DNA from: a bacterium
GTDB taxonomy: Bacteria > Patescibacteriota > Doudnabacteria > UBA920
Direction: 5' to 3'
NCBI GenBank assembly: GCA_021791515.1
Contig: JAJYWK010000006.1
Location: forward strand, 1 to 56,045
Length of the DNA stretch: 56,045 bases
The position numbers and the translations under genes are program-made. Every line of letters starts with the position of its first letter. Within the stretch, counting starts at the first letter, position 1. The notes under the pieces are model-generated. The model saw only the letters and a list, made by a program, of their open reading frames with translations. It searched no databases and had not been told where the DNA came from. This document shows positions 12,438-15,056 of the stretch, piece by piece.

Positions 12438-12467
12438 ATCCCGCCCTTTGCTGTCAAAGGGCGGGAT
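12438..12467 (+). terminator. intrinsic terminator hairpin
   Basis: atcccgcccttt-gctgtc-aaagggcgggat. Confidence 0.6.
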
Positions 12468-12502
12468 TGTCATATGTGATATAAAATTGAACTTTTTTGC
12501 AA

Positions 12503-12539
12503 TATATGATATACTAAGTGTATATTAAATATCATATAT
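12503..12539 (+). promoter_or_regulatory. 11-bp perfect inverted repeat overlapping the murA-fusion promoter and start codon (operator candidate)
   Basis: atatatgatat (12503-12513) and atatcatatat (12529-12539) are exact reverse complements. A third related copy, catatgtgatat, lies at 12471-12482. tatact and tatatt -10-like hexamers lie between them. Confidence 0.5.
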
Positions 12540-14061
12540 GAAATCAACTTTGGATGATAAACTAAAAATCGGGCAGTTTATTGCGGAAGTTAGGGAACTT
12601 AAGGGTTTTACTCAAAGCCAGTTTGCCAAAGCACTTAAAACTTCGCAGTCGGCCGTAGCCAGAATGGAAAGCGGCCAACAGAATTTAACCACCGAAATGC
12701 TGGCAAAAATCAGCGGCGCGCTAAACCAGGAAATTATTACTTTGGCCGACCGGTCGGTGAATTTTAAAATAGAAGGCGGGCGCAAGCTTTCAGGCAAGGT
12801 TTCTGTTAATTCTTCCAAGAACGCCGCTGTGGCTTTGTTATGCGCAAGCCTTTTAAATAAAGGCAAAACTGTATTGAAAAATGTGCCTAAAATAGAGGAG
12901 GTTAATCGGGTAATTGAAGTTTTGACAAGCCTGGGCGTGCAGGTAAAATGGCAGGAAAATAATGTGGAAATTCAACCGCCCAAAACAATCAGTATTAAAA
13001 ATATCAATAAAGAAGCGGCGGTTAAAACCAGAAGCGTGCTAATGCTTTTGGGGCCTTTGGTGCATTTGTTGCCTCAATTTAATTTGCCGCTGGCCGGGGG
13101 CTGTAAATTAGGCGCCCGCACGGTTCGCCCGCATTTGTTCGCTTTGGAAGGCTTGGGGGTAAAGATAAAAACCCATCATGACCATTATGAAGTTGCCGCT
13201 CATAAGTTAAATACATCCGAAGTTGTGCTGTATGAAACCGGAGACACGGTCACGGAAAATGTTTTAATGGCCGCGGCCAGAATTAACGGCCCAACAGCTA
13301 TTAAATTGGCTTCGGCCAACTATATGGTGCAGGATTTGTGCCATTTTCTGCAGGTGCTTGGCATTAAAATAGAAGGCATTGGCACGCCCACGCTAAAAGT
13401 TTACGGCAGAAGCCAAATTAACAAGCGCGCGGTCTATAATTTAAGCGAAGATCCAATAGAGGCCATGCTGTTTTTGTCTTTGGCCGCCACGACGAATTCT
13501 TCCATTATAATTGAGCGCTGTCCCATAGACTTTTTGCAGTTGGAATTGTTAAAGCTGGAAAAAATGGGGCTAAAATTTAAAATTTTAAAGCGGTACAAAA
13601 GTGAAAATGGTTTTACTGCTTTGGCAGATATTCAAACTTTTGAGTCCCGCCTTACAGCCTTGGAAGAAAAACTTCATCCCCTGCCTTCGGCATTTGGCAT
13701 AAATATAGATAATTTGCCGTTTTTTGTGCCCGTGGCCACTCAGGCCAAAGGCGTGAGTCTGGTTCAGGACTGGGTATATGAAAATCGCGCGGTTTATTAT
13801 ATGGAATTAAATAAACTGCGGGCGAATATTATTTTGGCTGATCCGCACCGGGTGTACGTGGAAGGAAAAAGTGATTTGCGCGGAGCGGAAATTATTTGTC
13901 CCCCTGCTTTGCGGCCAGCCGCGATAATTCTGATTGCCATGCTGGCGGCCAAAGGCACTTCTATCCTCCGCAATGTTTATTCCATTAATCGCGGGTACGA
14001 AAATTTGGTAAATAGGCTTAATCAATTAGGGGCTAAAATAGAAATTAACCATGGACTTTAG
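12538..14061 (+). CDS. murA: XRE-type HTH domain fused to UDP-N-acetylglucosamine 1-carboxyvinyltransferase
   Basis: Residues 1-70 are an XRE HTH (GFTQSQFAKALKTSQSAVARMESGQQNLT). The remainder is MurA-like: SSKNAAVALLCASLL, the active-site region LAGGCKLGARTVRPH, and the C-terminal RGYENLVNRLNQLGAKI. Confidence 0.8.
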   Translation: MKSTLDDKLKIGQFIAEVRELKGFTQSQFAKALKTSQSAVARMESGQQNLTTEMLAKISGALNQEIITLADRSVNFKIEGGRKLSGKVSVNSSKNAAVALLCASLLNKGKTVLKNVPKIEEVNRVIEVLTSLGVQVKWQENNVEIQPPKTISIKNINKEAAVKTRSVLMLLGPLVHLLPQFNLPLAGGCKLGARTVRPHLFALEGLGVKIKTHHDHYEVAAHKLNTSEVVLYETGDTVTENVLMAAARINGPTAIKLASANYMVQDLCHFLQVLGIKIEGIGTPTLKVYGRSQINKRAVYNLSEDPIEAMLFLSLAATTNSSIIIERCPIDFLQLELLKLEKMGLKFKILKRYKSENGFTALADIQTFESRLTALEEKLHPLPSAFGINIDNLPFFVPVATQAKGVSLVQDWVYENRAVYYMELNKLRANIILADPHRVYVEGKSDLRGAEIICPPALRPAAIILIAMLAAKGTSILRNVYSINRGYENLVNRLNQLGAKIEINHGL

Positions 14062-14608
14062 TTTTTTACATTTGGGAATTTGGACCTATGTGATTTTATT
14101 TTTTGCCATGTTTTTTGACGCCAATTTAATGATTATTATTGGTATTTTTGCCATAAGCTCCGGTTGGTTAAATTCATGGGCCATTGCCGGGGTAATAATT
14201 TTTGGAGCCTATTTAGAACAGCTTGCTTGGTTTGGGGTTGGAAGGCTTATGAAGAAATCTTCTTTTTTGTCCCTTTGGGCAACCAAAGTTATAGGAAGAT
14301 ATGATGAGCATTTAATTCACCGTTCGGCGCGTTCATTGCTTTTAACCAAATTTATTTACGGCACTCATCGCGCAACTTTGTTGCGCTATGGCATGCTGGA
14401 TTTTTTATTTGTTAAATTTGTTAAATCTTCGGCCATAGCGGTATTTTTTTGGCTAGGGATTATGGGGATTTTTGGGTTTGCCTTTAGTTTGTCTTATTTG
14501 GCTTTAAAAACTTATTTAAAGTACGCCCAATTTGGCTTGCTGGCGATTGTGGTGATATTTTTCTCAATCCAATATTTTGTTTCCAAGTCGCTAAAGAAAG
14601 AATTGTAA
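14051..14608 (+). CDS. integral membrane protein, possibly DedA/VTT-like
   Basis: 185-aa polytopic ORF that overlaps the murA stop by 11 nt. The family assignment is weak. Confidence 0.45.
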   Translation: MDFSFLHLGIWTYVILFFAMFFDANLMIIIGIFAISSGWLNSWAIAGVIIFGAYLEQLAWFGVGRLMKKSSFLSLWATKVIGRYDEHLIHRSARSLLLTKFIYGTHRATLLRYGMLDFLFVKFVKSSAIAVFFWLGIMGIFGFAFSLSYLALKTYLKYAQFGLLAIVVIFFSIQYFVSKSLKKEL

Positions 14609-14615
14609 AAATAGT

Positions 14616-15056
14616 ATGAAAGCAAATTTTAAATCGGCACTGTTTCTTGTATTAATTGCAATGGTTCTGCCGGAATTATTAACCGGCAGTTCGTCTATAA
14701 GCACATTCTTAAATCCTATTCATCTCATTATTCTTTTTCTGGGATACGGTGTTGCCGTACTTTTGATCAGAGAAATAGCTGTGAGGAATAATTTATCCTC
14801 TGGGGGCATTTTTATTTTAGGACTTGCCTTCGGAGTCTTTAACGAAGGGCTTCTGGCTAAAACTTTAATCCGTGCCAGTGAACTGCCAATCACTCAATAT
14901 AATAATTACGGCTACTTTTTGGGCGTTAGTTTTCCTTTTACTTTTGCCATTAGTTTTTGGCACGCGCTAGCTTCGGTGCTCGTGCCTATTTTGCTGGTAT
15001 ACTGGGTTTATTCTAAAAATAGCAGCCCCTTTTTGATTCATAAATCTATTACTTAA
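14616..15056 (+). CDS. hypothetical integral membrane protein
   Basis: 146-aa ORF with several hydrophobic segments. Confidence 0.5.
   Translation: MKANFKSALFLVLIAMVLPELLTGSSSISTFLNPIHLIILFLGYGVAVLLIREIAVRNNLSSGGIFILGLAFGVFNEGLLAKTLIRASELPITQYNNYGYFLGVSFPFTFAISFWHALASVLVPILLVYWVYSKNSSPFLIHKSIT

Follow-up and report, generated by a model that had tools for sequence, protein, structure and literature searches.

What does a DNA-binding domain do at the N-terminus of the enzyme that catalyzes the committed step of peptidoglycan synthesis? The question is raised by a gene in a 56,045-nucleotide stretch of DNA (positions 1 to 56,045 of contig JAJYWK010000006.1, assembly GCA_021791515.1; hereafter the window) from a bacterium of the lineage Patescibacteriota, Doudnabacteria, UBA920, in which MurA (UDP-N-acetylglucosamine 1-carboxyvinyltransferase), the target of fosfomycin, is fused to a helix-turn-helix (HTH) domain of the XRE type. 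An earlier note, made from the letters of the window alone, had pointed out this fusion, together with inverted repeats over the promoter and start codon that it considered compatible with autoregulation. A comparison with other genomes of the phylum leads us to propose, with a probability of about 0.72, that the fusion protein, termed HTH-MurA below, would be an enzyme that negatively autoregulates its own gene via palindromes at its promoter. Throughout, G000 is the label for the genome of the window, other G-numbers denote other genomes, and L-numbers denote loci.

The fusion is encoded by an uninterrupted single frame on the forward strand (Table 1), with neither an internal stop nor a frameshift in the translation of the window. 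Its N-terminal part is recovered by the Pfam HTH_3 profile (residues 15-63, E 3.2e-12; 46.7 bits, with the gathering score at 23), and the profile search that had been recommended for this region thereby supports the proposed XRE-type HTH. An AlphaFold2 model of HTH-MurA built on 51 homologs, with a mean predicted local distance difference test score (pLDDT) of 86, places the helices of this domain at residues 2-21, 26-32, 37-44 and 52-62. Its nearest relatives of solved structure are lambda-repressor-like proteins, C.AhdI, SinR and HipB, and the NCBIfam model NF006015 ('anaerobic benzoate catabolism transcriptional regulator') gives a weak match to it (E 2.9e-6, residues 10-70). Across the 51 homologs 18 positions within residues 11-62 are invariant, including T35, A39, A41, R42, E44, G46, Q48 and N49, a degree of conservation that points to strong purifying selection on the HTH. 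The 120 best matches to residues 1-72, in proteins of comparable length, all display the HTH plus EPSP_synthase architecture, and a tblastn search of G000 with the HTH found no free-standing paralog; as judged by these matches, this type of HTH is specific to MurA. Model confidence is low in a tether at residues 63-73 (pLDDT down to 57 at residues 61-70 and <50 at 67-71), and exceeds 90 over most of the MurA body that follows, in which the Cys loop (187-191) is flexible.

The claim of a full MurA with its Lys and Cys catalytic regions was likewise confirmed. The EPSP_synthase family (PF00275) matches residues 79-494 with an E-value of 1.2e-50, spanning profile positions 2-417 of 417, and with the NCBIfam MurA subfamily model NF006873 the protein scores 333 bits, above the cut-off of 297. 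With the equivalog model TIGR01072 it attains 326.3 bits where 392.7 would be required, a shortfall that fits a divergent clade of MurA enzymes. The strong matches among solved structures are all MurA, with 5ujs as the best (E 5e-57). Both the KNAA and the GGCKLGARTV motifs are present in the window protein and invariant across the 51 homologs, as are K94, N95, R165, C189, R194, D305, E415, R417 and R459, and in an alignment with 5ujs the invariant residues of the catalytic set line up with its conserved MurA motifs. Their counterparts in the E. coli enzyme we take to be K22, R91, C115, R120, D305, R371 and R397. In its full-length fold and its Lys/Cys/Arg/Asp set the protein resembles canonical MurA (E. 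coli 1uae, Campylobacter 5ujs and the enzymes of most other Patescibacteria); it differs from them in the presence of the HTH, in about 10 extra residues around positions 345-385 and in its score against TIGR01072. Judged by its conserved residues, the C-terminal part of 433 residues is a full MurA with a complete catalytic set, for which enzyme activity is predicted, and a MurA expected to be catalytically competent and a predicted DNA-binding domain accordingly appear in one polypeptide.

When the distribution of the fusion was surveyed, we found more than 120 protein clusters (69-99% identity) of the same length and with the same HTH plus EPSP_synthase architecture, and a pattern scan, run on a single genome for each species, detected the fusion in at least 581 genomes of Patescibacteria. 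Named lineages with the fusion include Doudna-, Lipton-, Taylor-, Kerfeld-, Nomura-, Zambryski-, Uhr- and Jorgensenbacteria, Paceibacteria and Saccharimonadales. The named clusters are called only 'UDP-N-acetylglucosamine 1-carboxyvinyltransferase', and the HTH is absent from public annotation. About 65 of 400 genomes sampled from the phylum encode this distinct MurA type, at least 42% identical to the window protein and mostly with the HTH, whereas the remaining ones encode a canonical MurA that is 33-39% identical to it. In a maximum-likelihood tree of the MurA domain this type forms the fully supported sister of the canonical enzymes. Nine basal members of the type are unfused in this tree, and within a 57-member clade (support 99) the unfused state arises at least 7 separate times, a topology that fits one gain of the HTH and its repeated loss thereafter. 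Two loci look like intermediates in the decay of the HTH: L068 (G167:C1:115012-116415), where an HTH remnant with TGA and TAA stops lies 5' of an intact MurA, and L051 (G129:C18:13475-14845), with an N-terminally truncated HTH whose match begins at query residue 43.

The fused gene is the only gene of the EPSP-synthase family in G000 (1.17 Mb, 97.7% complete), a genome in which murB and the four Mur ligases are present; from this gene content HTH-MurA is predicted to serve as the MurA of the cell. A second, unfused murA, for which the earlier note had advised a search, was found neither in G000 nor in five other fusion-carrying genomes that were checked, the fusion being the only copy there as well. 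The genomes checked in the taxonomic family of the window have either the HTH type or a canonical MurA, none has both, and two have neither, so the type of MurA is patchy within one family. Members of the family with a canonical MurA are G068 and G293, and also G092 and G173, as judged from weak matches to HTH-MurA; G015 and G221, which are 98-100% complete, have no gene of the EPSP-synthase family at all.

An alignment of the upstream regions revealed a contiguous palindrome of 16-18 bp that is common to the orthologs, (T)ATATCA-N4-TGATAT(A), with the consensus ATATCATATATGATAT and the extended form TATATCA-N4-TGATATA. Its positions C5 and G12 do not vary among 30 sites. The palindrome of most lineages lies directly 3' of a TTGACA -35 element, and its right half together with AAT/ATT reads as an extended -10 element, TGATATAAT, that ends 7-13 nt ahead of the ATG. 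This distance suggests that the mRNA is leaderless or has a very short leader, and that the promoter is covered by the palindrome.

The control region of the window holds three copies of the palindrome (O1, O2 and O3; Table 1). The earlier note had described this region differently, as exact 11-bp inverted repeats 15 bp apart with a third related half-site. The two arms are indeed exact (ATATATGATAT at 12502-12512 and ATATCATATAT at 12529-12539), but 16 nt lie between them, and the third half-site was located at 12470-12483 (TCATATGTGATATA), where it overlaps O1. As an operator unit the pair of arms was rejected, the left arm being the right half of O2 and the right arm the left half of O3. 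O1 is kept at the same place within the genus (L003, L004, L094 and L096, and with 1 mismatch L095), and with the AAA that follows it O1 also reads as an extended -10 element, TGATATAAA. O2 sits in the spacer and -10 of a candidate promoter, which would yield a leader of about 16-22 nt, and matches the canonical operator position of the orthologs. The region contains two candidate -10 elements, one at 12480-12485 and one at 12510-12515. Apart from O3, no site in the 1.17-Mb genome has 2 or fewer mismatches to the consensus, and no site with at most 1 mismatch arose when this genome was simulated five times with a third-order Markov model. From center to center the three copies are spaced by 30 and 32 bp, or about three turns of the helix, which would place them on the same face of the DNA.

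The occurrence of the palindrome was then compared between fused and unfused genes in the region from -220 to +30 of the start. A palindrome with at most 2 mismatches was present in 24 of 45 fused genes, three of them with a perfect copy. The 23 unfused genes that belong to the same MurA clade had none, nor did any of 771 control windows taken at these loci. In a replication set of 80 independently fetched, named loci (75 fused, 5 unfused) it was recovered in 50 of the 75 fused genes, nine times perfect, and in none of the 5 unfused ones, while 553 control windows contained no site even at 3 mismatches. An unbiased k-mer comparison gave ATGATATA/TATATCAT in 27 of 44 fused versus 0 of 22 unfused upstream regions. 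Across 7 phylogenetically independent pairs of fused and unfused genes, all on branches with good support, the motif tracks the HTH in about 5.3 and never shows the reverse (median p 0.06). The motif is also absent from all four genes whose fused proteins have a diverged recognition helix (L019, L024, L056 and L066). By these sequence comparisons the palindrome associates exclusively with HTH-bearing murA genes and is lost together with the HTH.

A further connection between the two is seen in a symmetric operator variant, ATAGCA..TGCTAT (ATAGCATATATGCTAT), in which both half-sites are changed in mirror fashion. It occurs at L104, L106, L121, L122, L125, L141, L169, L173 and others, where Thr replaces Ser36 of the recognition helix. 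A helix start of the form [ST]SQS goes with ATATCA..TGATAT at 63 loci and one of the form [ST]TQS with ATAGCA..TGCTAT at 13; two loci are mixed and the opposite pairing was not seen (0 loci). A mirror change of both half-sites is predicted by a dimeric binder, and residue 36 and the changed base of the half-site constitute a candidate amino-acid/base contact.

Outside the murA locus, a half-site scan of G000 gave 6 matches versus 4 for the reversed control, none of them convincing and none before murB. On these counts a wider regulon in this genome was rejected, and the lack of a further convincing site makes HTH-MurA a predicted dedicated autoregulator. The murA site is the best site genome-wide in G000, G114 and G190; it is unique in G114 and nearly so in G190. 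Extra palindrome sites are found in G397. In G149 (family f82, L070-L083) there are 15 palindromes versus 2 for the reversed control, for example L070:1201-1216, L077:1201-1216 and L078:1201-1216, with conserved half-sites and a variable central 4 nt. Some of these copies overlap with start codons in unrelated genes (DUF1697-like, RsmI-like and cysteine-desulfurase-like by their N-terminal sequences), and others are intragenic or located between genes that converge; the G149 palindromes might constitute either a wider regulon or a repeat.

On comparative grounds autorepression is well supported by the co-occurrence of motif and HTH, by their co-loss and by the covariation of recognition helix and operator, and in most orthologs the palindrome covers the -10 element and spacer, which is the position of a repressor site. 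In the mechanism that we favor, the N-terminal HTH on its flexible tether would bind (T)ATATCA-N4-TGATAT(A) as a dimer. The genus of the window would offer it three such sites: O1 5' of the -35 element, O2 within the spacer and -10, and O3 across the start codon. Once bound, HTH-MurA would block RNA polymerase, and the abundance of MurA would thereby limit the transcription of murA. We infer from sequence the binding by the HTH, the repression, any cooperativity among the three copies and any effect of ligands on binding. The autoregulation envisaged in the earlier note thus gains support from the comparative evidence, with a contiguous 16-18-bp palindrome as the likely operator in place of the pair of 11-bp arms.

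Several observations weigh against negative autoregulation. Two of the three copies in the window are degenerate, with 3 and 4 mismatches, and about a third to half of the fused genes have no site within 2 mismatches. The test on independent pairs is borderline and not conclusive alone. The change in the recognition helix arose only about 2 times on the tree, which renders the covariation suggestive but no proof. MurA enzymes are usually monomers, and dimerization of the HTH on a palindrome must be explained. Lastly, the right half-site doubles as the extended -10 element, so that part of its conservation could reflect promoter function, and five other HTH_3 proteins are encoded in G000.

These last two points would favor another reading, in which the palindrome is a promoter element or the site of another regulator and the HTH either contacts a protein, as the XRE-type HTH in RodZ does with MreB, or anchors the enzyme non-specifically to the nucleoid. 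The 15 palindromes of G149, several of them intragenic or located between converging genes, are also a poor fit to a pure murA operator. We nevertheless regard this explanation as improbable. Although it plays no part in the promoter, the left half-site is the mirror image of the right one and just as conserved. Neither a promoter element nor the site of another regulator sits well with the lack of the motif in every one of the 28 unfused genes in the clade, with its disappearance upon loss of the HTH or divergence of the recognition helix, or with symmetric half-site changes that track the helix substitution. A protein contact of the RodZ kind is disfavored by the layout of HTH-MurA, which has no transmembrane segment or extracytoplasmic domain and passes from a linker of about 10 residues directly into the soluble MurA fold.

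Little credence is also due to the notion that HTH-MurA, once bound to the palindrome, serves as an activator or regulates the cell wall more broadly. In the genus of the window O1 lies just 5' of the -35 element, a position typical of activators, but the site of most orthologs lies over the -10 and spacer. The approximately 15 sites of G149 and the extra ones of G397 would suit a wider regulator, whereas G000 shows no further convincing site, at murB or elsewhere, and G114 has the murA site alone. It is scarcely credible, finally, that the fusion is an artifact of annotation or assembly and the true MurA starts near residue 75 (e.g., at GTG 12757), with the HTH as a separate gene or an untranslated relic: such an internal start, raised in the earlier note, draws on the occurrence of unfused members in the MurA clade and on the coincidence of the Val74 codon with their starts, but it is contradicted by one conserved HTH plus MurA frame that runs unbroken through more than 120 clusters drawn from independent assemblies, by the purifying selection on the 18 invariant HTH positions, by HTH-loss lineages that show stops (G167) or truncation (G129) instead of an intact upstream frame, and by a promoter and operator ahead of the HTH start, with no promoter or ribosome-binding signal standing out before residue 75. 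Val74 itself is encoded by GTG at 12757-12759, the point at which the unfused orthologs begin, and internal initiation there may yield a free MurA.

Negative autoregulation could possibly include a sensory component. MurA makes large open/closed movements upon binding of UDP-N-acetylglucosamine (UDP-GlcNAc), and DNA binding by the HTH might depend on the catalytic state of the enzyme, that is, on whether it is open or closed and on its occupancy by UDP-GlcNAc, phosphoenolpyruvate or UDP-N-acetylmuramic acid (UDP-MurNAc). We put this forward as a tentative idea that we think somewhat unlikely.

Enzymes with a fused DNA-binding domain are known as trigger enzymes, and include BirA (the biotin protein ligase of E. 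coli and repressor of the bio operon), PutA and NadR. HTH-MurA is like them in that one polypeptide combines an N-terminal DNA-binding domain with a complete metabolic enzyme, that the operator lies at a promoter of the same pathway (a prediction in the case of HTH-MurA), and that the logic is one of enzyme-coupled feedback; in BirA, DNA binding is controlled by bio-5'-AMP. The DNA-binding domains are different, with a winged helix in BirA, a ribbon-helix-helix in PutA and an XRE/Cro-C1 HTH in HTH-MurA, which further differs from this group in being a peptidoglycan enzyme whose predicted target is its own gene. An N-terminal XRE HTH, a linker and a domain with an enzyme fold are shared with the BzdR-type regulators (NF006015), in which the last domain is shikimate-kinase-like. 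In BzdR the C-terminal domain no longer acts as an enzyme and serves as a sensor, whereas HTH-MurA retains all catalytic residues and is the only MurA of the cell. The proposed action resembles that of 434 Cro/repressor, C.AhdI, SinR and HipB, the closest relatives of the HTH with a solved structure, which as dimers occupy short palindromes over their own promoters. Such small XRE autoregulators are free-standing proteins of 70-110 residues or are joined to oligomerization domains and contain no enzyme, unlike HTH-MurA. The pairing of an XRE HTH with the committed peptidoglycan enzyme sets HTH-MurA apart from both the enzyme-repressors and the XRE autoregulators with which it was compared.

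The known controls of MurA are proteolysis, which in Firmicutes involves ClpCP together with ReoM/ReoY, feedback exerted by UDP-MurNAc, and the usual transcription factors. In the literature searched (MurA with HTH, XRE, fusion or trigger enzyme) we found no description of a MurA-HTH fusion, and papers on MurA2 of Streptomyces (SCO5998; PMC12161575, PMC8346170) do not mention an HTH. If the proposed autoregulation is true, a MurA with its own repressor domain would represent a new mode of control for the committed step of cell-wall synthesis, and HTH-MurA would join the short list of enzymes that act as their own transcription factors. The three phased sites found in the genus would then permit cooperative, switch-like control. 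If coupling to the catalytic state were also true, promoter occupancy would report precursor flux, and one protein would be sensor, enzyme and repressor. The at least 581 species-level genomes concerned belong to Patescibacteria, mostly uncultured organisms with minimal regulatory repertoires, for which this would be a rare circuit that can be tested in vitro, since the protein, the putative operator and point mutations that should abolish binding have all been specified.

Table 1. Coordinates of the HTH-murA gene, its domains, its putative control elements and its neighbors in the window
Feature	Position	Strand	Extent	Basis or remark
GC-rich hairpin	12438..12467	.	13-bp perfect stem, 4-nt loop	between upstream 70-aa open reading frame (ORF) and murA control region
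Putative operator copy O1, TTGTCATATGTGATAT	12467..12482	.		3 mismatches to ATATCATATATGATAT
Candidate sigma-70-type promoter, TTGAAC-17 nt-TATACT	12487..12515	+		consensus scan; TG before -10
Putative operator copy O2, TTGCAATATATGATAT	12497..12512	.		4 mismatches; right half perfect, left half degenerate
Putative operator copy O3, ATATCATATATGAAAT	12529..12544	.		1 mismatch; overlaps ATG 12538-12540
HTH-murA coding sequence	12538..14061	+	507 codons + stop	
Predicted XRE/Cro-C1-type HTH	12538..12726	+	aa 1-63	Pfam, AlphaFold2, conservation
Predicted recognition helix, SQSAVARME	12643-12669	+	aa 36-44	modelled helix 37-44
Flexible linker	12727..12759	+	aa 64-74 (~10 aa)	low pLDDT
MurA (UDP-N-acetylglucosamine 1-carboxyvinyltransferase) domain	12760..14058	+	aa 75-507	profiles, solved relatives
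Catalytic Lys94 codon (KNAA motif)	12817-12819	+		
Catalytic Cys189 codon (GGCKLGARTV motif)	13102-13104	+		
Small membrane-protein ORFs 3' of murA	14051-14608, 14616-15056		185 aa, 146 aa	no Pfam match

The hairpin that precedes the control region probably terminates transcription of the upstream 70-aa ORF and would mark the 5' edge of the region. At the same-genus loci L003 and L004 an equivalent hairpin, then TTTTG, stands ahead of the first operator copy; in the window, the TGTCAT directly 3' of the hairpin belongs to O1. The upstream synteny (bactofilin, DUF4446 and the 70-aa ORF) is kept only within the family, and of the other loci sampled only L007 of G190 also has the downstream membrane-protein gene, with a homolog of the 185-aa ORF directly 3' of HTH-murA; a conserved operon partner was therefore rejected. 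In the window itself an 11-nt overlap of the 185-aa ORF with the murA stop suggests co-transcription of the two.

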